A model generated the notes under the pieces. It was not told the origin of the DNA and searched no databases. It saw only the letters and a list, made by a program, of their open reading frames with translations. From positions 2,314 through 66,313 of the forward strand of contig LFSZ01000043.1 in assembly GCA_001512885.1 (NCBI GenBank): a DNA stretch of 64,000 nucleotides, written 5' to 3'. The stretch comes from Rikenellaceae bacterium DTU001. GTDB lineage: Bacteria; Bacteroidota; Bacteroidia; Bacteroidales; DTU049. Position 1 is the stretch's first letter. Each line of letters starts with the position of its first letter. Positions 1 to 18,363 of this stretch are shown here, one piece after another. The translations under genes were made by a program, and so were the position numbers.

Positions 1-583
1 ATATTTACTTGGAATAGCTAATAAATTTTCTAATATAGAAATAGGCATTTCGGATAAATCAAATATCAATAAAGTGAAAAAAGAACTTGCAAATTTATTG
101 CCTGAAGGATTTATAGTAAAAGATAGACACGAGCAAGACGAACTTTTATTTAAAATCTTAAGAAATGAACGCTTGATAGTTTTTATATTATTAGCGTTTA
201 TTGTTTTGATAGCTTCATTAAATATTATTAGCTCACTGGGGTTATTATTGTTAGATAAACAAAAGCGTGTACAAACACTTTATGCTCTAGGTATGAATAT
301 TTCGCAATTAAAAAAACTTTTTTTGAGAGAAGGTGCTATGATTGTATTAGGAGGTGGAGCCATAGGTCTCTTACTTGGTAGTATAATAGCTTTTTTACAG
401 TTACAATTTGGGATTGTACCTATGCATGGAGGCGATATGGTAGGACATATAGCTTACCCTATTGCATTCAAAGTTAGAGATTATTTTTTCATTATCTTAC
501 TCCTTTTATCTATTGCTATTTTATTGCCTAGAATACCTATCAAAAGAATAGATAAAGATTTCGTAGCTATTAGAAATGTTTAA
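1..583 (+). CDS. LolC/LolE-family (FtsX/MacB-type) ABC permease, C-terminal part; 5' end outside window
   Basis: Frame 2 is open from nt 2 with no stop before the GTG listed at 74, so the gene runs off the left edge. The C-terminal hydrophobic helices (LIVFILLAFIVLIASLNIISSL, REGAMIVLGGGAIGLLLGSIIAFL) and the overall layout are typical of FtsX-domain permeases. Confidence 0.7.
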   Translation, partial: YLLGIANKFSNIEIGISDKSNINKVKKELANLLPEGFIVKDRHEQDELLFKILRNERLIVFILLAFIVLIASLNIISSLGLLLLDKQKRVQTLYALGMNISQLKKLFLREGAMIVLGGGAIGLLLGSIIAFLQLQFGIVPMHGGDMVGHIAYPIAFKVRDYFFIILLLLSIAILLPRIPIKRIDKDFVAIRNV

Positions 584-677
584 AAAAATTAATATAAAAT
601 AAAAAGCAAAGGGGAATGATTTTAGAAAGTTATAAGTTTAGATTTATATGTTGTTTGTTATAGGCTATTTGTTAAAA

Positions 678-1493
678 TTATTTACCCCAATTTGGTACAT
701 TAAAAGGTGTAGATACATTTTGATTTAATTTTATTTGTTTAAAGAGCACCTTAGCTATAATTAATGGATTTTCGTAAGATTTTAATTCTATATTAATATT
801 AGTAGGCAATAACATAGTACCTATTAAATCATATTTTTCATATTTAATCGAGATACTTATATTGTCTCTATTCCAATAATTTAGTTCATTTTGTACTATC
901 TTTAAGGAATTATTAGAAATTTTTAGATTTTGTAATAAATTACAATTCTTATCATCAGGACCGATAATAATATTTCTAGATATAGTATAGTTAGTAAATA
1001 ATGAATCAGTGTGTTTTTGAATAATTTCATGGTTAAAAGAAATGAAATCATTAGCTACCAATAATGCTTCTACAACATCAAAATTTATACAAATACCAAT
1101 TTTTTCATAAATTTTTTCAAATGAGTCTGTGTAATATTCTCTACTAAATCGATTAATAATTTTGATGCTATCTTTATTTACTAAAATTCTAAATATCTCT
1201 ATTCCCGGCAAAACTGAGGCACTCATCCATACTAAACTATCGTGTATTATGATGATATTTGCATTGAAGTTGATTTCTTTATTTTCATAATTAAAAATAC
1301 CATTAGTTTTTAAAGATATATTATTATAACTAGTATTATTTACTAATACAAAGGTGTCTTTTGACTCTATAGATATAAATTTACTATCCTGAGAGTATTG
1401 CTGAGGTGATTTAGAAGTTTTGCAACTAAAAAAAACAAGAGAAACTATCAAAATAGATAAAATAAATTTAAAACGCATAATATTTTTTATCAT
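678..1493 (-). CDS. Putative outer-membrane lipoprotein (possibly LolB-like DUF4292 family)
   Basis: 271-aa ORF with an N-terminal signal peptide ending in a lipobox-like LVFFSC. The body is Asn/Ile-rich and beta-type. It overlaps the stop of the upstream TPR gene. The family guess is from memory of Bacteroidota neighbourhoods and was not searched. The true start may be the internal Met at nt 1478 (MRFKF...). Confidence 0.55.
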   Translation of the reverse strand: MIKNIMRFKFILSILIVSLVFFSCKTSKSPQQYSQDSKFISIESKDTFVLVNNTSYNNISLKTNGIFNYENKEINFNANIIIIHDSLVWMSASVLPGIEIFRILVNKDSIKIINRFSREYYTDSFEKIYEKIGICINFDVVEALLVANDFISFNHEIIQKHTDSLFTNYTISRNIIIGPDDKNCNLLQNLKISNNSLKIVQNELNYWNRDNISISIKYEKYDLIGTMLLPTNINIELKSYENPLIIAKVLFKQIKLNQNVSTPFNVPNWGK

Positions 1494-3240
1494 TTATTTT
1501 TTTATTGATTATCTCAGAGTTATTTCCATTTTCCTTAGATTTTTGCCATAGTTGCACTGCATCATCTATTAGATTTAGATGATAATAAATATCACCTGCA
1601 TGTTCTAAAATTTCTGGATCCGAATCATTATACATCAAAGCTTTATCTATCCATTTTTTTGCTTCATCATAATTTTTCATTTTAAATAAAATCCAAGCCT
1701 TAGTATCAATAAAAGAAAATCTAGTAGGTTCTGTTAGTAAAACCTCATCTATTAAATTTAATGCTTTATCCATCATAGTATCTTGTTGAGCCAAAAAATA
1801 TGCATAATTATTTTTGAGTACGAGATTCGCTGGATTAGCTTTTATTGCTTTTTCGAAATAATCGAATGCTTTGGCATATTCTCCTGTTTCATAGTAAGCG
1901 TTAGCTAGTAATTCTATAATAATATTTTGCAATTCTTTATTCTTAGAAGGTATATAGCTGAGTGCGTTTTCTAAATGTGGAATGCACTTTTCAAATTTTT
2001 TCTGCATAAAGGCAGCATAACCTGCATAAAAGTAAAATTCGCCTATATCAGGGTAAAAATTAAGCGCTTTATTAGCATAAAATAGCATACTATCATAATC
2101 ATTTTTAGCTTCATAAGACATAATGAGATTTCTATATGTCGCGTCATTAGTAGAGTCTAACTCAAGAGCTTTTTTGAAATAAACAATAGCAGTGTCTAAA
2201 ATGTTTTGTGCTTGATAATAAAAACCTATGATATTAAAAGTTTCGGCTTTATCGCTATGTAAATCTTCTAAATGATAAAATAATTGTTGTATAAATTGTT
2301 CATCTATATTGGGGTTTTCTATGCTTGTTAATATCACTTGCAGTTTGTCTTGAAAATCGACTCTTGGGTCCTTGATAGCTATTAACAATTCTTTTTTTAA
2401 CTCTTCTACTTTATTAATTGCAAAATAATAATTAGCAGCGAATAGCGCTGCATACCCATCGGTACTATCACGTTGTTTATACCATTGCACTAAACGGTAG
2501 AGAGCTGTTATTTTACCTTTTTCTATTGCAAATGAGGAATATTCTTTTTTGTAATCCAAATTAGACGGATCATATTGTATACATCTCCATAGCTCATCTA
2601 GAGCTTCATCACTCTTACCTAGCAATGAGTATATTTGATATTTATAAAAACCTATTTCCGGTATAAAGCCATGCTGCGATTCTAATTTCGTAAAGATTTC
2701 TAAGGCATTATTTGGCATAAAAGCTATTAAATACATTTGTGCAACATTTAAATAATAATCTAATATTTTAGGATTCTTAGATATTAATATCTCATATCGC
2801 TGTGCAGCTTCTCGGTATTTTCTTAATTTAACCAGTATATTGGCACTTAGTTCTAAATAATAAACATTTTCTGGTGATAATTTGATAGCAATATCGATAT
2901 ATTTATTTGCGCTATCCCATTTATTGTTTAGCTCATAATATTTACTAAGTAGATAATAAGCAACATCTTGCTTAGGATCTTTACTGATAATGTCAAATAA
3001 TATCTCTTTTGCTTGATCTAACTCATTTAGTAGTAAACATTTTTGTGCATCTAATAAAAGATTTTGTATCTCTACTGAGGCTTGCAAAGTTTTATTAGTA
3101 TCTTTTATTTTACAATTACTAAGTGAAAAGCTTAAAAATATTAATAATATAGGAATAATGACAAAGTTATATTTATTGATAAATTGTTTTTTTTCGTCTA
3201 TAATGATATCTGTAGATTTGATTTTTTTTGAATATTTCAT
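1468..3240 (-). CDS. TPR-repeat protein with N-terminal membrane anchor
   Basis: 590-aa ORF with many 34-residue A/Y/L-patterned repeats (e.g. AYYLLSKYYELNNKWDSANKYIDIAIKLSPEN, YFYAGYAAFMQKKFEKCIPHLENAL) and an N-terminal hydrophobic segment. Confidence 0.8.
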   Translation of the reverse strand: MKYSKKIKSTDIIIDEKKQFINKYNFVIIPILLIFLSFSLSNCKIKDTNKTLQASVEIQNLLLDAQKCLLLNELDQAKEILFDIISKDPKQDVAYYLLSKYYELNNKWDSANKYIDIAIKLSPENVYYLELSANILVKLRKYREAAQRYEILISKNPKILDYYLNVAQMYLIAFMPNNALEIFTKLESQHGFIPEIGFYKYQIYSLLGKSDEALDELWRCIQYDPSNLDYKKEYSSFAIEKGKITALYRLVQWYKQRDSTDGYAALFAANYYFAINKVEELKKELLIAIKDPRVDFQDKLQVILTSIENPNIDEQFIQQLFYHLEDLHSDKAETFNIIGFYYQAQNILDTAIVYFKKALELDSTNDATYRNLIMSYEAKNDYDSMLFYANKALNFYPDIGEFYFYAGYAAFMQKKFEKCIPHLENALSYIPSKNKELQNIIIELLANAYYETGEYAKAFDYFEKAIKANPANLVLKNNYAYFLAQQDTMMDKALNLIDEVLLTEPTRFSFIDTKAWILFKMKNYDEAKKWIDKALMYNDSDPEILEHAGDIYYHLNLIDDAVQLWQKSKENGNNSEIINKKINDKKYYAF

Positions 3241-3528
3241 TTTCCCTTAATATATTCGTAAGTTAATTATGCAAAATTAAAATTTAAAATTAATATAAAA
3301 AATTATTTAAATACTTAGATTTATTAAGATCTAATCTGTAATTGATAATTTACATCATTGATCGGATAAATAAATATATAGTTATTCAAAAAATGGAATT
3401 TCAAATAAGATTTATTGTATATTTGTTTTGTTATTTATGATTTTTAAACTTTTTTCTTTTACATAGTTTATTTCTGCTTATTTATAAATATTTTTACATT
3501 TAAAATAGTATTATTATTTCAAATTTAT

Positions 3529-3546
3529 TTGTTAATTTTGTAACAA
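3529..3546. promoter_or_regulatory. Candidate Rex-type operator (inverted repeat TTGTTA-N6-TAACAA)
   Basis: TTGTTAATTTTGTAACAA read directly from the sequence. It matches the Rex consensus TTGTGAAnnnnTTCACAA at 11 of 14 specified positions. It overlaps the -7 box of the hydrogenase-like operon, and a rex gene closes the same locus. The AT-rich background makes a chance match plausible. Confidence 0.3.
3533..3540 (+). promoter_or_regulatory. Bacteroidota-type -7 promoter box (TAATTTTG) for the hyd-like operon
   Basis: Matches TAnnTTTG. It lies 12 nt upstream of TTG(3553) and 24 nt upstream of ATG(3565). Confidence 0.4.
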
Positions 3547-3552
3547 TGTTAT

Positions 3553-4005
3553 TTGATAAACAATATGAGAATAATTTTACCTTTTACCATAAATGAATTA
3601 TTTAAGGAAGTATGGCACGTATATCCTAATTCTCTCATAGATTTTTGTGCTAAAATAATGTTAGAGCCATATGCACTCTCTAAATCCCATTTTGATGAAT
3701 TAGAAATTTATTTTAAACAGCCTGCATCGGAGATTTATGCTTTTGTGGTTACTTGCTTCCCTGATTTATTAATATCCGATATCAATTATGACATAGTTAT
3801 GTGTAGAGGGTGGAATTGCTACCTAAAATATGGTAAAAATTTTTTAAATGAAGTTAATTACCAATTTAGAAATGAGTCAGAAAAACCAATTATAAAATTT
3901 CATAAATGTAATGGCAAATGCCATACAGATCAAATAGAATTAAATATAAATTCAGCTTTTTATAAAATCTTGAATAATATTAAAGAAAAAATTATAAAAA
4001 AATGA
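3553..4005 (+). CDS. NuoE/HydC-like thioredoxin-fold [2Fe-2S] ferredoxin subunit (divergent)
   Basis: The four-Cys pattern IVMCRGWNCYLKYG ... HKCNGKCH is C84-x4-C89-x29-C119-x3-C123. It mirrors the NuoE/HndA signature VCxGxxCxxxG ... CLGxCxxAP (canonical spacing about x35). The stop overlaps the next start (ATGA at 4002-4005). The start may be ATG 3565 rather than TTG 3553. Confidence 0.65.
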   Translation: MINNMRIILPFTINELFKEVWHVYPNSLIDFCAKIMLEPYALSKSHFDELEIYFKQPASEIYAFVVTCFPDLLISDINYDIVMCRGWNCYLKYGKNFLNEVNYQFRNESEKPIIKFHKCNGKCHTDQIELNINSAFYKILNNIKEKIIKK

Positions 4006-5873
4006 GCACTATAAAGCTTCAGTTAGGCTATGCTATCACCTCATTAGAATTGCAAAATATATGGGAAAAAGAGTTATTGTCTCTGCTCTCTCAAGATAAA
4101 CATTTTATTTTAAAAAATCATAGTACAGATTTATCGCCTAATGATGATGCTATTATAATAGAAACTTTTCCTAATACTGGATTAAAAGGATTTTTGTATG
4201 CCGAACCCTTAGTATGGATAAAACATCCACTCAAGCGTACTTTATGTTTCAGAAATTTAGAACCTGAGTTAATACCATGGATAATAGAATGTGTTGTAAA
4301 TCTTGATATAACTAGTTTGAAACCTTGGATACAATTAGATGATTATGGAGAAAGCTGGCCCCATATCCCTATAATAACTCAAATGCCTTGGTATGACAAG
4401 ATAGTGCCCTTTTTGACAAATTCTTTTTCTGGAGATGATTGGATAATAGACAATACAATTTTAGACAATACAAATATTGATTTCATCGTCTCTCTATATA
4501 ATAAAAAAAGTAGTGTAGAAGTAAAAGATTTAATTTTTAAGAGTAAGCTTATCGGTAGAGGTTCAGGTACTCTACCTATAGAAATCAAGTGGCAAGCTAT
4601 AGATGAGCAATTAGCAGAAAAAAAATATTTAATAATAAATGCTAACGAATTCGGACCTAGTAGTCTAAGTAATTATTTTTTACTTCGATATTATCCTACA
4701 ATGATTCTAGAAGGTATAATAACCACTTGCTATGCTTTGCATATTAATAACGCCATAATAGCTATTCATCAAGACTATCTAGATGTTTATGAAGCTTTTA
4801 GTAAATTGATCAGCCAAGCCAAAGATTTAGGTCTATTAGGTGATGATATTTTAAATACTGGTAATTCTTTATCTATTGATGTAATGTTGACACCTGGTAT
4901 GTTAATTACAGGTGAAGAGACTGCCCTTATACATTTATTAGAATCTCAAATGCCTTTTCCTACTAATAAACCGCCATATCCCACTAGTTTAGGTTTGTGG
5001 GGACAGCCCACTTTAGTTCATAACGTAGAGACTATAGCAAATATTTCTCAAATAATAAAAACTGATAAATCTCTTGAAATCTACGCCCCCATTTCGAAGC
5101 AAGGGACTAAAGTAGTAACTCTATGTGGAGAAATAAATAATTATGGCGTTTACGAAATATCTATGGATATCAGTATAGATGAGGTAATAAACAAAATAGG
5201 TGGTGGACTTAATAATTCAAATAAAATAAAAGGCTTTCACATTGGAGGAGTTACTGGGAGATTTTTTGATCTAGATAACTTGGATAAATCTCTTTATGAT
5301 TTAGAAAAACAAACTAATTATTTAGGTACATCTACTATTTTTACTTTTTCAGAAGAGCAATGTATCGTTAAACTTTTACAACATATATCAGAAATACTTA
5401 CAGAGCAAAGTTGTGGTAAATGTATACCATGCTTATATGGATCTAGGGTATGGTCTGAGCTGATTAGTTATCTATCATTAGCTAATAATCCCCAAATTCC
5501 CCATTTTCCTTTATATAGATTAAAAACTATTTTATCATTTAATAAATTAGATCGTACTGTTACTGAATCTTCACTATGTGCATTAGGCAAAAGTCTTTCG
5601 CAAACATTCATATCAGCATATAATTTTTTCAAAGATGAAATCGAAGAGCATATATTTGATAAATATTGTCGTTCTTATCAATGTGTAGGATTGAGAAATT
5701 ATATTATAGATGAAGATGCATGTACTGGATGTGGACTTTGTATAGTAGAATGCCCTGTAAATGCTATAATAGAAAAACGAATAAATCTATTTGTTATTTT
5801 AGATGGTAAATGTGTAGGCTGCGGTTTATGTGAAAAAGTTTGTAAGTTTTCAGCTATAAATTTAAAAAAATGA
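4002..5873 (+). CDS. NuoF/HydB-like subunit with C-terminal 2x[4Fe-4S] ferredoxin domain; flavin/NADH motifs divergent
   Basis: NuoF signature blocks are present: GRGSGTLPIEIKW, NANEFGPS, ITGEETALIHLLES, PPYPTSLGLWGQPTLVHNVET, SCGKCIPC and SLCALGKS. The C-terminus carries CTGCGLCIVECP and CVGCGLCEKVC. The N-terminal Trx-like domain has no cluster cysteines (TGLKGFLYAEPLVWI). Confidence 0.85.
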   Translation: MSTIKLQLGYAITSLELQNIWEKELLSLLSQDKHFILKNHSTDLSPNDDAIIIETFPNTGLKGFLYAEPLVWIKHPLKRTLCFRNLEPELIPWIIECVVNLDITSLKPWIQLDDYGESWPHIPIITQMPWYDKIVPFLTNSFSGDDWIIDNTILDNTNIDFIVSLYNKKSSVEVKDLIFKSKLIGRGSGTLPIEIKWQAIDEQLAEKKYLIINANEFGPSSLSNYFLLRYYPTMILEGIITTCYALHINNAIIAIHQDYLDVYEAFSKLISQAKDLGLLGDDILNTGNSLSIDVMLTPGMLITGEETALIHLLESQMPFPTNKPPYPTSLGLWGQPTLVHNVETIANISQIIKTDKSLEIYAPISKQGTKVVTLCGEINNYGVYEISMDISIDEVINKIGGGLNNSNKIKGFHIGGVTGRFFDLDNLDKSLYDLEKQTNYLGTSTIFTFSEEQCIVKLLQHISEILTEQSCGKCIPCLYGSRVWSELISYLSLANNPQIPHFPLYRLKTILSFNKLDRTVTESSLCALGKSLSQTFISAYNFFKDEIEEHIFDKYCRSYQCVGLRNYIIDEDACTGCGLCIVECPVNAIIEKRINLFVILDGKCVGCGLCEKVCKFSAINLKK

Positions 5874-7453
5874 AAATTAATATTACAGTAAATAATCAAA
5901 AATACAAAGTAGATCTAGGGGAAAATCTACTAAATGCTTTACTTTCTTTAGGCTATGATATTCCACATCTTTGCTATTTAGAAAATTACTCCCCAAATTA
6001 TGCTTGCAGATTGTGCATGGTAGAAATTGATGGATTTAATAATCCTATTCAAGCTTGTACTGTTGATGTAAACACACCACTGCAGGTTTACACTCATACT
6101 CCGAAGCTAATAAATATTCGTAAGAATATATTAGAATTAATCTTGTCACAACATTCATTAGAATGTAATACATGTCCTAAGGCTATTAATTGCAGTTTAT
6201 TAAATTATGCATATCAATATGGTGTAAACGAAATTATTTGGAGACATGTGATTACCGATTCCAAGGAAAAAGATATATCTAGTCCTGTGATAGCTAAAAA
6301 TATAAATAAATGCATCTCTTGTGGTATTTGTGTTAAAATTTGTAATGAAATGATGCATTGCAATGTATTTAATCATGCTTTTATTGGTACTAAAAAAACT
6401 ATTATTTCTTCTTTGGATAAACCTATAAATTTATCTAATTGTTACTACTGTGGACAATGCTCTTATCATTGTCCTACTAGTGCTTTATATGAAAAATCAT
6501 ACATTGATAATGTGGAGATAGATCCACAAAATACTACCTTAATATTTGACTCTGCTGCTGTTTACAACTTGATGTCTCAGATTAATAGTAATTTTACAAA
6601 AAATCCTATTTTATCATTTAATTATTTATGTCAATTCTTAGGTTTTAAAAAATTAATTAATTTAGGAGAATTAATAGATGCTAAATTATATTTAGATTTT
6701 CAACTTTTAAAAGATAGAAAACACCCTATCATTTCTAATTTATGTCCTGTCAGTATAGAATATATTAAACAAAAATATCCAGAATTAATTGAATTTATCA
6801 GTCCTTTAGCTTCCCCAATGCAGGCTGCAATTAGATTGACTAATAAAAGTAATCCTATCCTGATACTCACTAATTGTTCGGCTTACAAAAATGATATTTT
6901 TCAAAATTATAGTAATACTGAGCACAAAATTTATGTTGCTAATGTAAGAGATTTTTTAAAATATTTATTGCGAAATGGCTATACATTAGAACAATTAAAA
7001 AATTTGATTCCTAACATCAAAGCTAAAAAAAACTATTCATATTCTATCGGCGGACTGTATGCTGATATATCAATGTATAATTTATTAAAATTAATTTTAG
7101 ATGAAACCAATATACAAATAGATAAACCCTCAAAAATTAATAGTTTTTTAACAGGAAAAAATGAAAATAAAAAGTATAATTTTAGATTAAAAAATAAAAA
7201 TTATTCTTTAATAAGCATTAATACAATAAGTGAGATTGCAAATTTTTTTGATCATGAATTTTTAAAAACAAATTTAGCATTAATAGGATGCTGGAGCTGT
7301 GCTAATGGATGCATTAATGGTGGAGGCAAAACTTTCGAAATATTTAAAACTACAAATAAAAGTTTATCCTCAAGAAATCCCTTGCTCACCCAAATTTATA
7401 ATATTAATGAAGATTTAATAATTCAAGAGAAATTATGGAAACAAGAAAATTAG
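5870..7453 (+). CDS. [FeFe]-hydrogenase HydA-like protein (2Fe-2S + His-ligated 4Fe-4S + 2x4Fe-4S + H-domain) with non-canonical L1/L2/L3 motifs
   Basis: Cluster patterns read from the sequence: C35-x10-C46-x2-C49-x13-C63, H95-x3-C99-x2-C102-x5-C108, CISCGICVKIC and CYYCGQCSYHC. H-domain motifs are ISNLCPVS (canonical TSCCPxW), LTNCSAYKND (MPCxxKxxE), ASPMQ and LIGCWSCANGCINGGGKT (ExMACxxGCxxGGGQP). The start overlaps the upstream stop (ATGA). Confidence 0.8.
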   Translation: MKINITVNNQKYKVDLGENLLNALLSLGYDIPHLCYLENYSPNYACRLCMVEIDGFNNPIQACTVDVNTPLQVYTHTPKLINIRKNILELILSQHSLECNTCPKAINCSLLNYAYQYGVNEIIWRHVITDSKEKDISSPVIAKNINKCISCGICVKICNEMMHCNVFNHAFIGTKKTIISSLDKPINLSNCYYCGQCSYHCPTSALYEKSYIDNVEIDPQNTTLIFDSAAVYNLMSQINSNFTKNPILSFNYLCQFLGFKKLINLGELIDAKLYLDFQLLKDRKHPIISNLCPVSIEYIKQKYPELIEFISPLASPMQAAIRLTNKSNPILILTNCSAYKNDIFQNYSNTEHKIYVANVRDFLKYLLRNGYTLEQLKNLIPNIKAKKNYSYSIGGLYADISMYNLLKLILDETNIQIDKPSKINSFLTGKNENKKYNFRLKNKNYSLISINTISEIANFFDHEFLKTNLALIGCWSCANGCINGGGKTFEIFKTTNKSLSSRNPLLTQIYNINEDLIIQEKLWKQEN

Positions 7454-9432
7454 AATATCATCAATTAGTTTTTACAGTACAAAATAGATGCAAGGTTTGT
7501 TATACTTGTGTTAGAGAATGTCCAGCTAAAGCTATAAGGATATTTAACGGGCAAGCTGATATTTTACCAGATAGGTGCATTACCTGTGGCAACTGCATAA
7601 AAGTTTGTAGTCAAGGCGCCAAAGATTTTGTAAAGCACTCTGATGAGGTCGATGAGCTTTTACAAACAAATGAAAAAGTAGCTGCATTAGTAGCGCCAAG
7701 CTTCCCATCCGAATTTTCTGATTTCAAAACTCATAATAATTTTGTAGGTTTATTAAGAAAACTTGGTTTTGACTATATTTACGAAGTGGCTTTCGGTGCC
7801 GACTTAGTAGCTCATACATTTAAAAAACTAATAAAAGCTAATCCAGATATGCAATATATCACTTCAGATTGCCCTGCAATAGTGAAATTTGTTAAAAAAT
7901 ATTATCCTGAACTGACAGAAAATTTATTACCTGTATGCTCGCCTATGAATGCAATGAATAGAGTAGTAAAAAATATGTTTGACTATAATATTAAAACTAT
8001 TTTTATAGGACCTTGTATCGCCAAAAAAGATGATTGGGAAGAGGTGGATTTCAAAATTACTTATCGTGAACTTAGAAGTTTAATTCAAAAACATAATATT
8101 GAAATAGAAAATATAGAACCTTCAACTTTCGACCCTCCTTATGGAGGTTTAGGAGCCATATTTCCTGTATCTAGAGGGCTGATACAAGCTGTAGACATTG
8201 ATGATAAACTCTATAAAAGTAATATAATAGCTGCTGAAGGCAGAGAAGATTTTCAAGAAGCTCTGAAAGAATTTTATTCAAAAACTTGGGGCAAAGAAAA
8301 CCTTGAACTTTTGTGTTGTGATGGCTGCATAATGGGGCCAGGAACTACTTCTTTGAGTAATAGATTTGCTAAGGAGGCTTTCGTTACTAATTATGTTAAA
8401 AGAAAATTAAAAAATATTGATTGGGAAGAATGGGAAAATAATTTAAACTATTGGATGGAAACACTTGATTTATCTGTAGAATATTATCCCTCCCCTATTG
8501 AAGATTTAATACCAAGTGAAGAGGAAATCAGATCTGTTTTAATTGAATTAGGTAAATCTACTCCCGAAGATGAACTCAATTGTGGTGCTTGTGGATACAA
8601 TACTTGTAGAGAGCATGCTATAGCGATAATAAAAGGTATAGCTGAAACCGAGATGTGCCTTCCATATACTATAGACAGATTGCATAGCCTATTAGAAGAA
8701 TTAAATATCTCAAACAAAGAATTGCGAGATGCCCAGGAAGCTCTGAAAAAAACTGAAAAATTAGCAACTATGGGACAATTAAGTGCTGGCATAGCTCATG
8801 AACTCAATAATCCCCTCGGTGTTATAATAATGTACGCAAATATTCTTTATGAAGAATGTCCGCCCGATGACCCTAAAAGAAAAGATCTAGAAATGATAGT
8901 CTCGCAAGCCGAGAGATGTAGGCAAATTGTTAAAGGATTACTTAATTTTGCTAGAAAAAATCAAGTTGTTTATGAAAAAATAAATATACAAAATCTATTT
9001 GATAAAGCTATTAATTCTGTTATAATACCTGAACATATTACAGTAAAAACCAAAGTTGATCCGCCAGATCTCGAAGGATATATAGACATAGAACAAATGC
9101 TACAAGCCATTACTAATCTTATTCAAAATTCAATAGATGCTATTGGCAATAAAAAAGGTGAAATCATATTAGAAGCTCAGACTAAAGATAACTATTTGGC
9201 AATCTCAGTATATGATAATGGTGTTGGGGTACCCGATAGTGATTTATCAAAAATTTTTGAACCATTTTTTACAACTAAACCCGTGGGCAAAGGGACGGGG
9301 TTGGGTTTGGCTACCGTTTATGGAATCATTAAAATGCATAGGGGCAAAATAGAAGTGGAAAGCAATGCTGATCCGTCTAAAGGGCCTACATATACTAAAT
9401 TTTATATCTTTATACCTCAAAGTAAAAATTAA
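7435..9432 (+). CDS. Sensory [FeFe]-hydrogenase-like protein fused to histidine kinase (2x4Fe-4S + H-domain + Cx2Cx4Cx16C module + HisKA + HATPase_c)
   Basis: Ferredoxin motifs [12 protein letters not shown] and [12 protein letters not shown]-domain motifs [17 protein letters not shown] and [14 protein letters not shown] four-Cys module CGACGYNTC...x16...C at aa 383-408. H-box [10 protein letters not shown] (His455, nt 8797-8799). N/G boxes [16 protein letters not shown] and GKGTGLGLA. It overlaps the upstream gene by 19 nt. Confidence 0.85.
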
Positions 9433-9473: not shown

Positions 9474-9908
9474 ATGATATCATTAAGTAGTTTTAAAAAA
9501 AAAATAAAAATTATGGAAAAAATAAAAATTTTATTAGTAGATGATGATCCCGATTTTTCTGATCAAATGTTATTTTATCTAAATAAATTTGGTTATAATA
9601 CAATATATTTACCTTCGCAAAGATCAGCTGAAAGTCGTCTGAAAGATTTAAAATTTGATCTTGCTATCATAGATTTGATGATGGAAGAGGAAGATAGTGG
9701 ACTACAATTAGCTCGAAAAATCAAATCAAACTATCCAGACATACCTATTATATTACTTACTGCTATCACTAATGAAACAGGGTATTCACTTTCTAATGAA
9801 TTTGATAATTCGCCAGAATTAATGCCTATAGATAAATATTGTGAAAAAGGTATCAGGCCTGAGGTATTAAATAAAATAATCCAACAATTATTAACAAATA
9901 AAAAATAA
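9474..9908 (+). CDS. Stand-alone response-regulator receiver (CheY-like, no output domain)
   Basis: Receiver pattern KILLVDDDPDF ... DLAIIDLMM ... PIILLTA, with no additional domain. The probable true start is ATG 9513 (MEKIKILLVDDD). Confidence 0.85.
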   Translation: MISLSSFKKKIKIMEKIKILLVDDDPDFSDQMLFYLNKFGYNTIYLPSQRSAESRLKDLKFDLAIIDLMMEEEDSGLQLARKIKSNYPDIPIILLTAITNETGYSLSNEFDNSPELMPIDKYCEKGIRPEVLNKIIQQLLTNKK

Positions 9909-9913
9909 AGGTT

Positions 9914-11065
9914 ATGATATACAATATTTTAATAGTAGATGACGAAGAAGGCATTAGAATGGCAATAAAAAGAGCATTAGAAAAACATCGGATAGATTTT
10001 CCATTTTTAGATGAACCTATCAAATTATCGCTATATGAAGCAGAGAGTGCTGAGAGGGCTTTAGAAATTTTGTCTGATACTCACATGGATATTATATTAT
10101 TAGATAATAAATTGCCAGGAATGCAAGGTATCGATATTATGCCTTATCTAAATGAGCATTATCCTGATACTAAAATACTAATCATTACTTCCTTTGCCTC
10201 ATTAGATATAGCATTAGAAGCTACTAAACATGGAGCTTTTGATTTCATTCCCAAACCTTTTACTCCACAGGAACTAAAAAATGCTATCGAGATAGCTAGC
10301 AAACAAATATATCTAAATAGTATAATAAAAGATATGGATAAAGAAGCTAGAAAAATACGCTTCAAATTTCTTTCTATTTTGTCGCATGAGCTCAAAACCC
10401 CCATAACTACCCTAGAAGGATATATTTATATGATAAAAGAAAAGCAATTAGGTGATAATATAGATAATTATATGGAATTAATAGACAAAATGCTTAATAA
10501 ATTAGAAGAAATGAGAACTCTGATAATGGATCTTCTAGACTTCACTAATTTGCAAGCCGAAAGCACTATAGGAGAAAAAGAATTGTTATCATTAAAAGAA
10601 ATTATCATGTTTTCTATTGATAGTCAACGACCATTAGCTATTCAAAAATCTATAACTTTCGATATAGATATAAAAAGTCCATTAAATATTTTTGCTAGTA
10701 AAAATGAAATGGAAATATTATTTAATAATTTAATAAATAATGCAATAAAATACAATAAAAATAACGGTAAAATAATAATAAAAGGCGAAGAAAATGATAA
10801 TAATATAATAATAAAAATAAAAGATACAGGTATTGGTATCAATGAAAATGATTTACCACATATTTTTGATGAATTCTATAGAACAGTAGATGCTAAATCT
10901 CGTCGTTTATCTGGTACTGGACTGGGACTTTCTATCGTAAAAAAAATGATAGAATTGTATAATGGAACTATAGAGGTAGAGAGCAAAGTTAATGAATACA
11001 CAGAATTTACCATTATTTTACCTAAAATAGAAGATAATAAAACTAAAAATTTTATTGATAATTAA
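9914..11065 (+). CDS. Hybrid receiver-histidine kinase (N-terminal REC + HisKA + HATPase_c)
   Basis: REC pattern ILIVDDEEGIR ... DIILLDNKLPGMQG ... ILIITS ... KPF. H-box LSILSHELKTPIT. N/G boxes NNLINNAIKY, DTGIGI and GTGLGLSIV. Confidence 0.85.
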   Translation: MIYNILIVDDEEGIRMAIKRALEKHRIDFPFLDEPIKLSLYEAESAERALEILSDTHMDIILLDNKLPGMQGIDIMPYLNEHYPDTKILIITSFASLDIALEATKHGAFDFIPKPFTPQELKNAIEIASKQIYLNSIIKDMDKEARKIRFKFLSILSHELKTPITTLEGYIYMIKEKQLGDNIDNYMELIDKMLNKLEEMRTLIMDLLDFTNLQAESTIGEKELLSLKEIIMFSIDSQRPLAIQKSITFDIDIKSPLNIFASKNEMEILFNNLINNAIKYNKNNGKIIIKGEENDNNIIIKIKDTGIGINENDLPHIFDEFYRTVDAKSRRLSGTGLGLSIVKKMIELYNGTIEVESKVNEYTEFTIILPKIEDNKTKNFIDN

Positions 11066-11098: not shown

Positions 11099-11719
11099 AT
11101 GATATTACCAGAAAAAACAATAGAACGTTTAAGTAAATATAGAAGGGTATTGATAAACCTAAATTTTCAACAAAAAGATTATATCTATTCACATGAATTA
11201 GCTAATCTGATTCATATAACTCCCGAACAAGTAAGAAGGGATATGATGTTAATAGGACATAGCGGTACACTTAGAAGGGGTTATGAAGTTAAACAATTAA
11301 TAGAAAAGATAAATTCTATAATAGATGGTAACACAGTACAATATGTTACTCTAGTAGGTGTTGGTAATTTGGGACGTGCAATGCTCAATTATTTAAAAAA
11401 TAAAAATAAATATTTGCAAATAATAGCTTGCTTTGACAATGACCAGGATAAAATTAATAAAATGTGTTGTGGTATACCTTGTTATTCTATCAATGAAGCA
11501 GAAGAACAAATAAAAAAGTTAAATATAAATATTGCTATATTGACAGTCCCAACAAATGTAGCTAACGAAGTAGCTGATATTTTAATTAAGGCAGGCATTA
11601 AAGGATTATTAAATTTCACTACTATGCCTTTAAAAGTGCCATCCAACGTATATCTAGAAGAATATGATATGATAACATCTTTGGAAAAAGTTGCTTACTT
11701 TACACAATTTATTGAATAG
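11099..11719 (+). CDS. rex: Redox-sensing transcriptional repressor Rex
   Basis: N-terminal winged-helix block IPEKTIERLSKYRRVL ... SHELANLIHITPEQVRRDM, followed by the Rossmann motif VTLVGVGNLGRAMLNY. The 206-aa length is typical. Confidence 0.85.
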   Translation: MILPEKTIERLSKYRRVLINLNFQQKDYIYSHELANLIHITPEQVRRDMMLIGHSGTLRRGYEVKQLIEKINSIIDGNTVQYVTLVGVGNLGRAMLNYLKNKNKYLQIIACFDNDQDKINKMCCGIPCYSINEAEEQIKKLNINIAILTVPTNVANEVADILIKAGIKGLLNFTTMPLKVPSNVYLEEYDMITSLEKVAYFTQFIE

Positions 11720-11788: not shown

Positions 11789-12700
11789 ATGCATATATAT
11801 TATAGCTTTGATGAAGATTTTGAAATATCTAATCCTGTTGTAACGATTGGCACTTTTGATGGTGTGCATGCTGGACACAGAGCTATATTGAAAAGATTAA
11901 ATATATTAAGTCAAAAAGTAAATGGTGAGTCTGTACTGATAACTTTTTATCCTCATCCTCGCAAAGTATTATATCCTGATACCTTAGGTAAAAATTTAAA
12001 AATGATCTGCACTCAAAATGAAAAAATACATCTATTACAAGAGACTAAATTGAATCATCTATTTATAATACATTTTACTAATGAATTTTCTAAAATTACC
12101 GCTGAGCAATTCGTTAGAAATTTTTTAGTAAATAAATTGCACGCTAGAGTCATAGTAGTTGGTTTTAATCATCATTTCGGCTACGACAAACAAGGTGACT
12201 ATGAATATTTATATGAATTACAACAATATTTTGGATTTCAAGTAGAGGAGATACCACAACAAGAGATAGAAAAAGAGACTGTATCATCTACTAGAATCAG
12301 ACAAGCTCTAAGCCAAGGATTGATACAAAAAGCTAATGCTTACTTACAATCTCATTTTCCCTTTTTCGGTGTTGTAACTGAAATAAACCCATTAGACAAT
12401 AAATTGACAAAAATAAAAATCAAAACTGATGAAATAGAAAAAATAGTACCACCGATAGGTTTATATGCTGGAGTTTTGCAAATGGATATTAAAAAAATTA
12501 AATGCTTAATAATCACAAATGAAATTGATGAGAATATCATACCATTTATTGAAATAATTTTTCAAGGTGAAATAAATATCACATTAGGAGATAATGTACG
12601 TGCATTTTTTGCAAAAGAATTACAATTATATGATAAAATAGATAATTTGCATAAGAGTATTAATGAGTATATAACATTAATAAATGAATTGATATATTAA
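11789..12700 (+). CDS. ribF: RibF-type FAD synthetase (FMN adenylyltransferase module intact; riboflavin-kinase module degenerate)
   Basis: The N-terminal motifs GTFDGVHAGH, FYPHP and SSTRIR are present. In the C-terminal half the expected GRxLGFPTAN, NIGxRPT and LRxE motifs are replaced by DNKLTKIKIK, ITNEIDE and AKELQ. Confidence 0.75.
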   Translation: MHIYYSFDEDFEISNPVVTIGTFDGVHAGHRAILKRLNILSQKVNGESVLITFYPHPRKVLYPDTLGKNLKMICTQNEKIHLLQETKLNHLFIIHFTNEFSKITAEQFVRNFLVNKLHARVIVVGFNHHFGYDKQGDYEYLYELQQYFGFQVEEIPQQEIEKETVSSTRIRQALSQGLIQKANAYLQSHFPFFGVVTEINPLDNKLTKIKIKTDEIEKIVPPIGLYAGVLQMDIKKIKCLIITNEIDENIIPFIEIIFQGEINITLGDNVRAFFAKELQLYDKIDNLHKSINEYITLINELIY

Positions 12701-14823: not shown

Positions 14824-17800
14824 CTAATAACACAATGGCAGGATAATCGTAAATTTTGTCCCCTCACCTAAAAGACTTTCTACCAATATTTTACCATTTA
14901 AGTCTTCGATTATATGCTTTACTATTGCTAAGCCTAGTCCGGTACCAGATGATTTAGTAGTGAAATTGGGTTCAAATATATTTTCTAGCATCTCATTGGC
15001 GATTCCGATACCATTATCAGAAATTATAATTATAGCATTATTATTATCTGATTTAGCATAAATGTTTATCTCTCCGCGTCTTTCATTTGATAGAGCTTGC
15101 ACGGCATTTTGCAATATATTAGTAAAAGCTCTATTTAGTCTACTCTCATCTCCTATTACTGTCAATTTATCAGATTCTAAATGAATATTAATATCATAAT
15201 CTGTACTATGAAACAGGGCAGCTAAATTTTGTAAAAGTGTTATGAGATTTACTTCCTTGCTTAATGGTTCTGGCATTTTATTAAATTGAGAAAATGCTGT
15301 TGCTATTTCAGATAATTGTTCTATTTGTTCTAGAAGTGTTGTTAAGTATTTTTCGATATCTTGTTCAAATCTTTTTTTATCTTGCTTCCATATTCTTTGC
15401 AAAAATTGAACACTTAGCTTCATAGGTGTAAGAGGATTTTTTATTTCATGAGCTACTTGTTTTGCCATTTCTCTCCAAGCTATTTCTCTTTCGTTCTGAG
15501 CCAGCTTTTCAGCTTTTTCAGCTAATTCATCTATCATTTGATTATATTGCTTTACTAATTGTCCTATCTCATCATTACTTTTGTATTCTATTTTTTCATT
15601 TTGTTTAGATAAATTTAGTGATTTTAGCCTTTTACTTATTAATTGCAAGGGTCTATTTATATATTGTGTTATTAAAAAAGTAAAAATTAGAGAAATCAAG
15701 AGTAAAATGGCATAAATATTTATAAAAGCACCTATTAGCTCACTCAATTCTCCCCGTAATTCTGTGATCTGGCTAAACATAGGTATAGACAATATGCCTA
15801 TTATATTATTACCTCTAAATACTGGCATATATGTATTGCGATATTCAAACTCACTTATTTTTTCTTTATTTGAGTAATACCAATACTTTTTCCATTTGTT
15901 TGTCCAATAAACATCTGGATTTATCAATGTTGTTAACAAATGATCGTTAAACAATGCAAATTGTGTCGTTGATAATAAAGTGCCATCTGTATTATAAAAA
16001 TGTAAATCCGAAAAGTAAGAGTATTTATATTTCCATAACAGTGAATCTATGCTGGTCGAGTTGATTTTTATATTATTTTTTACGATTTCGTCTTGTAATG
16101 ATAAGTACAATCCATAATTGCGCTCAAAACATTGTTTTTCTAATTGCCGTGAGTATGTGTTTTGTATATATTTGACAGACAAAATACCTGCTACCAAAAT
16201 GACAATAGTAATAATACTGATCAATGTGATTTGTAATCTACCCGCATAACTTCTAAAAATCTTTTTAATGTTAATACCTTTTATTAATATGTAATAAATT
16301 AAATAAAGCAATAGAATTATTATAATAAAAAATGAAAAGATACTCAACCAATTTGGTAAAGTGTGATTAGACACTAACACAATAAATCTATTATTGTCTA
16401 TTTCGCTTTTGATGGCGTATTTATCATGATATTTAAATAATTTGCCAATAGGAGCTGCATCTATTTCATTATCTACTTGTAAAGGAAAAATTGTATTACC
16501 ATAGCTCTGCATTAATGTATTATTATAGTATGTAGCATAATCTAGCTGTCCAGGGAGTAATTGCTCTTCCTCTATATTTACTAATAATTCTAAATATCCT
16601 TCTGGTCTAAAAGGTTTCTTTTTGTAAAGTTCTAAATATAATTGGTGTGGTAGCTCACTATGAAGCATGATTTTGTATAAATAGTAAGTAATATTGGCAT
16701 TAGTAATGAAATATAAATTATCTGATATGTGCTGTGCTTGCGAATACTCCACTATGCTATCATAATATTGCCAGCAATTGATTTCTAAATTATTATTTAA
16801 AAATTTATCATGACTACTACAGATGAAACCTATGATATCATACTGATCTTGAAATGAGGATAAGTAGTGATTTTTTATATGTGTCAGCCATTGCATACTG
16901 GTATCGAAGCTATTAGCATAATTCACTAAAAATCTATCAGCAGATATTTCAGTTTGGAGTTCATTTAAGTGATTTTCTAGTATCAAATCTCGCTCAGAGC
17001 TTATTTTTACAGCATTTAAGAGTAAATAATTCGAAAAACTCTGATGATGCACTCGCATAAATAAAAAACTACTAATAGCTACTATCATACCACTAAAAAT
17101 ATAAATAAAATAGCGCCTAAACGACTTCTTATTCATAGATGATAATAGGTACATTATCAGCCAAAGTAAGATCCCTAACATCGAGATAATAAGATAAAAA
17201 TTTTGATTTTTTAATAAAAAAATCAAAAAAATTGTATAAAAAGCAAAACCACTATAAACTATTTTTTTGGGTGGTTTGTGAGTTAGCATCAATCTGATCG
17301 ACCATGTCCATATGACCAGTAGGGATATAGCTAAAATTATTACAAATATAATATCCACTTTTGTAGATATCCATTCATAATAGCTATAGGGAAATTCAGT
17401 TGCATTGAATATGCGAGATAGCCAGATAAAAATATTACCAGAGAAAAATATTGAGGTTACAAAACAGAAAAGCCTTTTGTAATCATTAGGTAATAGCTTG
17501 ATAGCAATCTTGATAATTAGAGCAGCTAGCCACACTAATAAAAATGTTTTACCTATATTGTTAAAAATAAGAGATAATGCAAAAAATGAAGGATTAAAAA
17601 CATAATATTTGGTAGATAAAAAATTAGTAAGTATCCATAATAACCCGATAATCGTTAATATTAAAATTAAAAGGACAAAGATTTTATTACTAGCTTTCCA
17701 TTTATTTATCAATGCAGAAATCAAAAGATACAAACCAAATAAAAACAAAATAAAACTTAATAATGCAATGAAATTTTGAGTTTTAGTAGGCTGAATATCC

Positions 17801-18363
17801 CGAGGAATAAATTCTAAATTTTCTAAAACATTATTATTTTTATTATTTATTTTTAATTCAAAAGCTGCTAATGGGTCTATTTTTTTATTTATCTTATTTG
17901 TTAAATAATTATTTTTAATTGGATAACTTTCTTGTAATTGCCAGCTCAAAATCAATTTATAATTTTCAAACTCTTGGCTGTAACATAAAAAAATACCCCT
18001 CTCACTCTCAGCTACCCATTGCTGCGCTGTTAAATTATTAATTATAAAGTCATTAGTAGACCAATAGATCAAACTGTCTGCATCATATATCCAAACACCA
18101 GCCTTTATATTATTAATATTTTCTAACTCCTGTTGTAGACTACTCCAATCATTATTGATTATTAATTTAATGATAGCAGTATCATTTACAAAACTTTTTA
18201 GTTCATTCCATTGTTTTTCAACTTTTTTTGATAAATTATTTTTATTTATTGACTGATAAAGTGGATAAAATGTATGATTAATAGTAAATACTAAAACACT
18301 TATCAGAAGTATCCACAGGCTTAATTTTAATTTTTTATTAATTATATAATCAATTTTGATCAC
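14824..18363 (-). CDS. Large multi-pass membrane sensor histidine kinase (HAMP-like linker + HisKA + HATPase_c, NtrY-like core)
   Basis: 1179 aa with many hydrophobic helices across roughly aa 190-450 and 660-900. H-box VAHEIKNPLTPM. N/G boxes NILQNAVQA, DNGIGI and GTGLGLAIV. No adjacent response regulator. Confidence 0.8.
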   Translation of the reverse strand: MIKIDYIINKKLKLSLWILLISVLVFTINHTFYPLYQSINKNNLSKKVEKQWNELKSFVNDTAIIKLIINNDWSSLQQELENINNIKAGVWIYDADSLIYWSTNDFIINNLTAQQWVAESERGIFLCYSQEFENYKLILSWQLQESYPIKNNYLTNKINKKIDPLAAFELKINNKNNNVLENLEFIPRDIQPTKTQNFIALLSFILFLFGLYLLISALINKWKASNKIFVLLILILTIIGLLWILTNFLSTKYYVFNPSFFALSLIFNNIGKTFLLVWLAALIIKIAIKLLPNDYKRLFCFVTSIFFSGNIFIWLSRIFNATEFPYSYYEWISTKVDIIFVIILAISLLVIWTWSIRLMLTHKPPKKIVYSGFAFYTIFLIFLLKNQNFYLIISMLGILLWLIMYLLSSMNKKSFRRYFIYIFSGMIVAISSFLFMRVHHQSFSNYLLLNAVKISSERDLILENHLNELQTEISADRFLVNYANSFDTSMQWLTHIKNHYLSSFQDQYDIIGFICSSHDKFLNNNLEINCWQYYDSIVEYSQAQHISDNLYFITNANITYYLYKIMLHSELPHQLYLELYKKKPFRPEGYLELLVNIEEEQLLPGQLDYATYYNNTLMQSYGNTIFPLQVDNEIDAAPIGKLFKYHDKYAIKSEIDNNRFIVLVSNHTLPNWLSIFSFFIIIILLLYLIYYILIKGINIKKIFRSYAGRLQITLISIITIVILVAGILSVKYIQNTYSRQLEKQCFERNYGLYLSLQDEIVKNNIKINSTSIDSLLWKYKYSYFSDLHFYNTDGTLLSTTQFALFNDHLLTTLINPDVYWTNKWKKYWYYSNKEKISEFEYRNTYMPVFRGNNIIGILSIPMFSQITELRGELSELIGAFINIYAILLLISLIFTFLITQYINRPLQLISKRLKSLNLSKQNEKIEYKSNDEIGQLVKQYNQMIDELAEKAEKLAQNEREIAWREMAKQVAHEIKNPLTPMKLSVQFLQRIWKQDKKRFEQDIEKYLTTLLEQIEQLSEIATAFSQFNKMPEPLSKEVNLITLLQNLAALFHSTDYDINIHLESDKLTVIGDESRLNRAFTNILQNAVQALSNERRGEINIYAKSDNNNAIIIISDNGIGIANEMLENIFEPNFTTKSSGTGLGLAIVKHIIEDLNGKILVESLLGEGTKFTIILPLCY

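Follow-up and report, generated by a model that had tools for sequence, protein, structure and literature searches.

The stretch of DNA analysed here, referred to as the window, comprises 64,000 nucleotides (nt) of Rikenellaceae bacterium DTU001 (assembly GCA_001512885.1, contig LFSZ01000043.1, positions 2,314 to 66,313 of the forward strand). Among its genes is an eight-gene module whose order, hydC', hydB', hydA', hydS-HK, a REC gene, a REC-HisKA-HATPase gene, rex and ribF, is the same in three species, with flanking genes that differ. This work concerns hydA' (window positions 5870..7453, + strand), the product of which descends from the M3-type [FeFe] hydrogenase subunit HydA and combines an intact accessory-cluster domain with a decayed H-domain. 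Judged by its sequence, hydA', which descends from the catalytic subunit of electron-bifurcating HydABC, is probably non-catalytic.

Cluster ligands and H-domain motifs of HydA'

The hydA' open reading frame (ORF) starts with ATG, shares 4 nt with the NuoF-like hydB' at the latter's stop and encodes 527 residues, among which a regular-expression search located all 20 Cys/His cluster ligands. Those of the accessory clusters (5972..6472, + strand) comprise the [2Fe-2S] motif C-x10-C-x2-C-x13-C (Cys35/46/49/63; residues 35-63), the [4Fe-4S] motif H-x3-C-x2-C-x5-C (His95-Cys99/102/108; residues 95-108) and two CxxCxxCxxxC motifs (residues 148-158 and 191-201). A script found each of them at the spacing that had led an earlier reading of the DNA, hereafter the original prediction, to call these domains textbook; the same reading had described the three H-domain motifs as atypical and the proton-relay Cys as replaced by Leu, all of which was borne out.

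L1 is SNLCP instead of the canonical TSCCP (6734..6748, + strand; residues 289-293), or SNLCPVS against TSC(C/S)PxW when the motif is extended. The sequence used for the reference enzyme CpI was found correct at 20/20 literature positions before being aligned with HydA'; the alignment pairs the relay residue Cys299, which is Cys in 80/80 canonical sequences, with Leu291, and the ligand Cys300 with Cys292. L2 is TNCSAYKND instead of MPCxxKxxE (6869..6895, + strand; residues 334-342), in which Cys355 is kept and M353T, P354N, K358Y and E361D have occurred, with Tyr at C+3 and Asp at C+6 in place of two residues, K358 and E361, that are 100% conserved in the canonical set. A Lys does lie one residue past the K358 position (C-x3-K, C+4 corresponding to CpI K359), and a shift of register that would put this residue, K340, at K358 was considered and rejected, three independent MAFFT alignments having fixed the Cys at C+0 and the Asp/Glu at C+6. 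L3 is GCWSCANGCINGGGKT (7286..7333, + strand; residues 473-488), which retains Cys499, Cys503 and the GGG, is altered by E495G, M497W, P500A, G501N, Q509K and P510T so that GGGQP becomes GGGKT, and includes an additional, lineage-specific Cys474. From CpI to HydA', the four ligands of the H-cluster cubane are conserved (C300 to C292, C355 to C336, C499 to C477 and C503 to C481), and the other equivalences are C299 to L291, K358 to Y339, E361 to D342 and M497 to W475.

A further L1 variant, TSCSP, with Ser at CpI 300 and Cys only at 299, is present in about half of canonical A3 HydA (loci L017-L092) and in A. woodii HydA1. This C300S variant was already known (PMC4284687); it is noted there and in PMC11406978, neither of which discusses the residue that ligates the cluster.

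Conservation was gauged against 80 canonical M3-type HydA from fetched genome loci, considering positions conserved in at least 95% of them. The N-terminal iron-sulfur (F-)domain of HydA' keeps 28/28 such positions; its H-domain keeps 18/59, and the 41/59 that are altered represent a departure that the original prediction understated. Along the proton path, C299L, E279D, E282L and a gap at R286 leave S319 as the sole residue kept, and the alignment finds in the L1 loop no other Cys, Asp or Glu that could replace the relay Cys, a substitution that had been considered with the original prediction. As the relay Cys is Leu, has no substitute within L1 and has lost the remaining proton path with it, HydA' is certainly not a standard catalytic HydA.

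Changes extend to nearly all of the known contacts of the di-iron subcluster, namely A230D, M353T, P354N, K358Y, E361D, F417Y, G418S, G422L, V423Y and M497W; D-S-A stands where A230-P231-S232 is usual, and R449T is also among the H-domain changes. In CrHydA1, variants of K228, the counterpart of CpI K358, block assembly of the H-cluster, and an E231D variant could not be matured (PMC9516953). Taken with these results, the changes at K358, E361, A230, F417, V423 and M497 make it more likely that the di-iron site has been lost than that the enzyme is crippled but still carries its cofactor. The earlier expectation that replacement of the relay Cys would cripple catalysis therefore holds in so far as the relay and the rest of the proton path are gone, but framing it as a proton defect only is too narrow, the anchors of the di-iron site having changed too.

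Pfam recognizes Fer2_4, NADH-G_4Fe-4S_3, Fer4_7 and Fe_hyd_lg_C in HydA', which amounts to the M3 architecture, and does not find the C-terminal small-subunit-like domain PF02256. The Fe_hyd_lg_C score, 52.6 bits, lies above the cut-off of 22.1 (159 bits for the neighbouring HydS); against NF040763 (FeFe_hydrog_A6) HydA' scores 218.8 for a cut-off of 765, in an alignment that ends at residue 319, and against TIGR02512 (FeFe_hydrog_A) 94.7 for a cut-off of 405.95. HMMER aligns only residues 3-320 and a short stretch of L3 to the HydA chains of the Protein Data Bank (PDB), and a search with the H-domain alone against 1.84 billion representatives returned one other cluster at E <1e-30, the next matches being at E ~1e-9 to 1e-10. 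An AlphaFold2 model with a predicted local distance difference test score (pLDDT) of 73.8 retains the HydA fold, its best structural matches being T. kivui HydA, T. maritima HydA and CpI; confidence is low for residues 384-396, equivalent to the F417/GGVMEA loop, and from residue 482 onward. Annotation pipelines name the protein 'NADP-reducing hydrogenase subunit HndD'.

Selective constraint and origin

Orthologues of HydA' from two other species, P0001 (71% identical) and P0002 (69%), carry SNLCP, NCSAYKNE and CWACxxGCINGGGR, and because both keep the odd motifs these are not the product of chance or sequencing error. Ratios of nonsynonymous to synonymous substitution (dN/dS), calculated by the Nei-Gojobori method across the three species at a dS of about 1 or more, come to 0.05-0.08 in the F-domain and 0.15-0.24 in the H-domain of hydA', 0.07-0.10 in the NuoF-like hydB', 0.05-0.11 in the NuoE-like hydC', 0.06 in hydS-HK and 0.03-0.05 in rex; the H-domain is about threefold more relaxed than the F-domain yet clearly constrained. 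In all three species the hydA' ORF is intact, overlaps its neighbours and is free of stops and frameshifts, and the gene is maintained by purifying selection in at least three species.

An intact ORF in three species and dN/dS far under 1 led to rejection of a pseudogene or sequencing artefact, and genome-wide AT drift as sole cause was likewise discarded, since conservation of the F-domain, of HydS-HK and of Rex is good in that genome. Within the lineage, the residues between the two L3 Cys differ (AN, DN or ND), and the new protic residues D230, Y339, C474 and the Tyr at 417 are conserved.

In a neighbour-joining tree HydA' nests in the clade of HydS-HK-linked HydA, where the window lineage forms a very long terminal branch; phylogenetic placement, proposed with the original prediction as a way of checking it, thus puts HydA' inside bacterial A3. 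Descent from group A3 HydA is supported by this placement together with the M3 architecture, the fold and synteny with canonical loci. Among the fetched loci, 31 HydA genes from several phyla are directly followed by HydS-HK, and downstream Rex and RibF occur only in the HydA subclade of the window. The same module is found in more distant Bacteroidales, every member of the subclade being located in hydC'-hydB'-hydA'-hydS-REC-REC/HK-rex-ribF.

Within this subclade the pocket positions decay stepwise, with the window protein at the tip. The syntenic HydA of L012, a metagenome-assembled genome of Tenuifilaceae, is canonical at 299, 353, 358, 417 and 497; L011 has C299K and K358R; L009 and L010 have C299N, M353T, K358R and F417G; L013, L015 and L020 have C299A, M353T, K358M and F417A or F417T; and in the further representatives P0122-P0165 position 299 is Ser, Phe or His and position 358 is Ala, Ser, Tyr, Leu or Arg. 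The neighbour-joining tree unites all of these proteins in a single subclade of HydS-HK-linked HydA. C300, C355, C499 and C503 are invariant across the subclade and positions 299, 353, 358, 417 and 423 take many residues, a contrast that reads as the mark of a 2Fe site under relaxed constraint and a cubane that is retained. Of 51 conserved positions, 50-51 are present in the HydB partners of the intermediate HydA forms. Nearby, L009 encodes another HydABC, which is fully canonical, and a PP2C-linked HydS, and its variant HydA copy is a paralogue sitting among regulators. In L012, L013, L014, L020 and L009 (positions 1-7197 of the last), a second sensory hydrogenase and a PP2C (SpoIIE) phosphatase are encoded divergently upstream of the variant module.

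Partner subunits, sensory hydrogenase and regulators

The two genes upstream of hydA' are equally derived. hydC' (3565..4005, + strand) encodes a highly diverged NuoE/HydC-like [2Fe-2S] subunit of 146 residues, counted from a conserved ATG at 3565 that is supported by cross-species alignment, as opposed to the TTG at 3553 chosen by the ORF caller. Although HydC' has no match in Pfam or NCBIfam, profile-profile comparison matches it to syntenic HydC at a probability of 74% (E 2.8e-5) and brings both Cys pairs into register, and the motif C-x4-C-x29-C-x3-C is kept. hydB' (4002..5873, + strand) encodes a NuoF/HydB-like protein with altered flavin/NADH loops in which Pfam recognizes Complex1_51K, NADH_4Fe-4S and two Fer4 domains, and which scores 241 against the nuoF_fam cut-off of 558. 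Of 51 positions with at least 95% conservation among 82 HydB homologues, HydB' keeps 37 and has lost 14, the losses being concentrated in the flavin/NADH loops; GRGGAGFPT has become GRGSGTLPI, NADExDPGAF NANEFGPSSL, NNVET HNVET and CREG CLYG, the flavin/NADH-loop substitutions including G188S, G190T, G220S, C303T, N340H and R478L. The [4Fe-4S] Cys of HydB' are all kept. Its first 170 residues do not resemble the N-terminal domain found in syntenic homologues.

Immediately downstream, hydS-HK (7435..9432, + strand) overlaps the end of hydA' with its start by 19 nt (13 nt in relatives) and encodes a sensory [FeFe] hydrogenase of the group C type with a fused HisKA/HATPase portion; Pfam detects Fe_hyd_lg_C (159 bits), FeS, HisKA and HATPase_c domains in it. 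Its pocket consists of A230, P231, S232, D299, C300, G353, C355, K358, F417, L497, C499 and C503, and it appears to be the true sensor. Among the products of the gene cluster it alone has a sensor-type H-cluster pocket that is intact. Asp at CpI 299 is a feature of the HydS-HK of these Bacteroidota (window, L001-L015, L020, L026, L031, L059 and L089), those of other phyla having Ala, Ser, Thr, Pro or Asn. Asp is the only replacement of Cys299 with which clostridial enzymes are reported to remain active; a structure of CpI C299D is available (6GLZ).

Other sensory-type H-domain proteins are encoded in the fetched loci. Short ones, of about 420-460 residues, lie a few kb upstream of canonical HydA in L052 (2769-4136), L072 (2676-4055) and L083 (2683-4059) and among the upstream ORFs of L058, L079, L084 and L091. 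Their pocket is group D-like (Ala/Phe at 299; Ser/Thr at 353; Trp at 417; Leu/Asn/Arg/Lys at 497); those of Firmicutes fit the published description of group D, and those of Marinilabiliales keep even fewer canonical positions than hydA'.

The regulatory half of the module begins with a single-domain response regulator (REC; 9474..9908, + strand; Pfam Response_reg), syntenic in L001, L005, L009 and L012, followed by a hybrid REC-HisKA-HATPase kinase (9914..11065, + strand), identified by Pfam and syntenic in related loci. Next come a Rex-type redox-sensing repressor (11099..11719, + strand), with Pfam domains Put_DNA-bind_N and CoA_binding and a phmmer score of 216 bits to the Rex of L012, and, as last gene of the module, a RibF-like FAD synthetase (11789..12700, + strand; Pfam FAD_syn, 158 bits) that is again syntenic in L001, L005, L009 and L012. 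Pfam sees only the FAD_syn half of the 303-residue RibF-like product; it detects a flavokinase half in the RibF homologue of L012, and not here nor in L001, L005 and L009.

Upstream of hydC', the window, L001 and L005 share without any change a 29-nt footprint, TATTTGTTAATTTTGTAACAATGTTATTT (3525-3553), whereas the spacer around it has diverged. It lies about 12 nt 5' of the hydC' ATG and holds a perfect 6+6 palindrome, TTGTTAATTTTGTAACAA (3529..3546), which is Rex-operator-like: with one mismatch, it is the sole match in the window, at two or fewer mismatches, to TTGTTAANNNNTTAACAA, which we take to be the Rex operator consensus (Ravcheev et al. 2012). The match alone is not significant, since 94/100 shuffles of the AT-rich DNA contain at least one, and the 29-nt identity across species is the only informative part of the Rex-box evidence. 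Through this conserved palindrome 5' of hydC', Rex would probably repress the operon.

The G+C content of the window is about 28%. Neither maturase genes nor further hydrogenase genes were found in it. Relatives have, two to three genes past ribF, a radical-SAM+BATS gene that we read as HydG, which is not so in the window; the lack of a maturase there tells nothing, given that HydS would in any case require maturases. Two more sensor histidine kinases are encoded elsewhere in the window, one of 1179 residues with HAMP, HisKA and HATPase domains (14824-18363, - strand) and one of 683 residues with TPR, HisKA and HATPase domains (42580-44631, + strand), and no response regulator was noticed adjoining either.

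Possible role of HydA' and its place among known systems

With a probability that we put at roughly 0.58, HydA' carries iron-sulfur clusters only and serves, together with HydB' and HydC', as an electron wire or scaffold for the HydS kinase system. The combination of K358Y, E361D and A230D would remove the cation that fixes the distal cyanide and place a carboxylate beside it, and the H-domain, by analogy with apo-HydA and Nar1, would bind only a [4Fe-4S] cluster and not turn over H2. With the equally derived HydB' and HydC', HydA' would form an iron-sulfur wire or scaffold, which would couple redox carriers of the cell (ferredoxin, possibly NADH) to the co-translated HydS kinase.

Several points weigh against this assignment. 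Cofactor content cannot be read from sequence, and both the wire or scaffold role and the contact with HydS are suggested by gene order only. HydS-type proteins, a kind for which binding of an H-cluster has been demonstrated by experiment, have no more than about 20-27 of 51 canonical positions, compared with 15-18 of 51 in the window lineage, and all nine of the positions that at least 90% of HydS-type proteins have in common with canonical HydA are retained by the lineage; as HydS-type proteins retain only slightly more, the count of retained positions was downgraded as proof of cofactor loss. Among the HydS-type ORFs of the fetched loci, nearly all have K358 and A230-P231-S232, but six PP2C-linked ones from Bacteroidales are without K358 and retain K359, the next Lys, which is invariant in HydA' and might act as a substitute. 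Finally, the conservation of pocket residues across the three lineage members would fit a site that has been re-tuned and is still occupied.

The same observations lend themselves to a possible, if doubtful, alternative in which HydA' binds a complete H-cluster in a re-tuned pocket lacking a proton path, and thereby acts as a second, slow, sensor-grade H2-binding site that would work like group C/D HydS and signal via the HydB'C' chain or the kinase next to it. Replacement of C299 by a non-protic residue, of M353 by Thr/Ser and of M497 by a bulky hydrophobic residue parallels TamHydS and TmHydS, which bind the H-cluster (PMC8163306), and recurs in the group D-like ORFs that were fetched; moreover, the four cubane Cys and the nine shared positions are kept, the pocket is conserved in three species and the C+4 Lys is invariant. 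However, the loss of a cation and gain of an anion near the distal cyanide, together with the assembly failure of K228 variants (PMC9516953), are difficult to accommodate in an occupied site, K358, A230-P231-S232 and an aromatic residue at 417 are present in most of the HydS-type proteins examined, the conserved GG(V)MEA loop is changed by G422L and V423Y, the inter-Cys residues of L3 vary within the lineage, and a dedicated sensor is already encoded next door. The original prediction that this partner subunit looks sensory or otherwise non-standard is thus upheld as regards non-standard; a sensory role is still a live option in view of the group D-like pattern, but K358 and the architecture differ.

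That HydA' is still a working hydrogenase using an alternative proton route through Cys474, Asp230 or Tyr339, with HydA'B'C' producing H2 as an NADH/ferredoxin-linked enzyme, is very unlikely: although the three subunit genes are intact, translationally coupled and under purifying selection, and D230, Y339, C474 and the Tyr at 417 are conserved in the lineage, such a function has to contend with 41/59 altered near-invariant H-domain positions, a known proton path reduced to S319, absence of the Lys needed for cofactor insertion (PMC9516953), degenerate flavin/NADH loops in HydB', scores that miss the curated hydrogenase thresholds and an H-domain evolving about three times faster than the F-domain. 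Most improbable is that hydC'B'A' are relics on their way to loss, with motifs reflecting drift in an AT-rich, fast-evolving genome, as the G+C content, the scores of HydC', HydB' and HydA' far below family cut-offs and the very long branch might suggest, because dN/dS is 0.05-0.24 at saturated dS in three species without stops or frameshifts, all 24 Cys/His ligands of HydA' and HydC' and 28/28 F-domain positions are kept, and the well-conserved HydS-HK and Rex show that drift is not genome-wide.

Returning to the wire or scaffold reading, a more specific and tentative version of it is that a HydABC-derived complex has lost both catalytic ends, the di-iron site in HydA' and the flavin/NADH site in HydB', and become an iron-sulfur 'antenna' physically bound to the HydS kinase, integrating H2 and the redox state of ferredoxin; it is conceivable, though doubtful, that H2 would then be sensed at the HydS H-cluster, with its Asp at the relay position, and the state of ferredoxin via HydA'B'C'.

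Among known systems, the closest is the HydA of group A3 HydABC (T. kivui 8A6T, T. maritima 7P5H and A. woodii 7Q4V), which has the same N-terminal cluster domain with all its ligands and the same hydC-hydB-hydA order, supplies the best sequence and structure matches and contains HydA' in the tree. It differs in its canonical L1-L3, in the conserved H-domain positions, of which HydA' keeps only 18/59, and in PF02256, which is absent from HydA'. HydA' is therefore group A3 by descent, yet it fails the three signature motifs and the curated thresholds, and is not filed as a functional member.

The putative sensory hydrogenases HydS of group C (TmHydS) and group D (TamHydS) are like HydA' in being devoid of the relay Cys and the canonical proton path, in having M353 and M497 replaced (M353 to Ser/Thr is typical of group D; PMC8163306) and in their adjacency to HydABC genes. 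They are distinguished by two N-terminal [4Fe-4S] motifs, a C-terminal Cx2Cx4Cx16C motif and, often, PAS, kinase or phosphatase modules; HydA' has neither the C-terminal Cys motif nor a signalling domain, and it is its neighbour at 7435-9432 that has the HydS architecture by Pfam.

Eukaryotic Nar1/NARFL (CIAO3), which is homologous to the H-domain and has the Cys that bind the cubane but neither a di-iron subcluster nor H2 metabolism, offers a functional analogy only; unlike HydA', it keeps the L2 Lys. The comparison was made by description only, and Nar1 differs further in its independent origin and in having partners from the CIA machinery, which assembles iron-sulfur clusters in the cytosol, rather than HydB'/HydC' and a kinase. 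Because the tree places hydA' inside bacterial A3, any resemblance between the two would be convergent. Nar1 is presented as an Fe-S protein in PMC13451876.

The BfuABC system of Hydrogenedentota, with its 'T' sensor subunit (Zheng and Huang 2024, PMC11406978), likewise joins HydABC genes to a group C hydrogenase bearing PAS or histidine-kinase domains. BfuA keeps the motifs xTSCxPxW, MPCxAKK and ExMxCPGGC, and variation of motifs P1-P3 between sub-types is described without a biochemical test (PMC11406978); in HydA', by comparison, the motifs and surrounding pocket are largely lost, and the module adds Rex and RibF.

A literature search returned no description of this decaying HydA subclade. 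One published survey discarded sequences without L1-L3 (PMC6085437), and such filtering may explain why the clade has stayed undescribed in the literature searched. Conversely, genome-based estimates of H2 production would count the HndD-annotated HydA' as catalytic group A3, almost certainly wrongly. If the proposed reading is true, the intermediates in related genomes would record a metabolic hydrogenase becoming a dedicated sensor subunit. The clade, extending from canonical proteins through C299, K358 and M353 variants to the window lineage, is a natural series in which to ask which second-sphere residues are needed for H-cluster insertion, and the tight, conserved linkage between a HydABC that is probably dead and a HydS kinase provides a way to test the interactors of group C hydrogenases.

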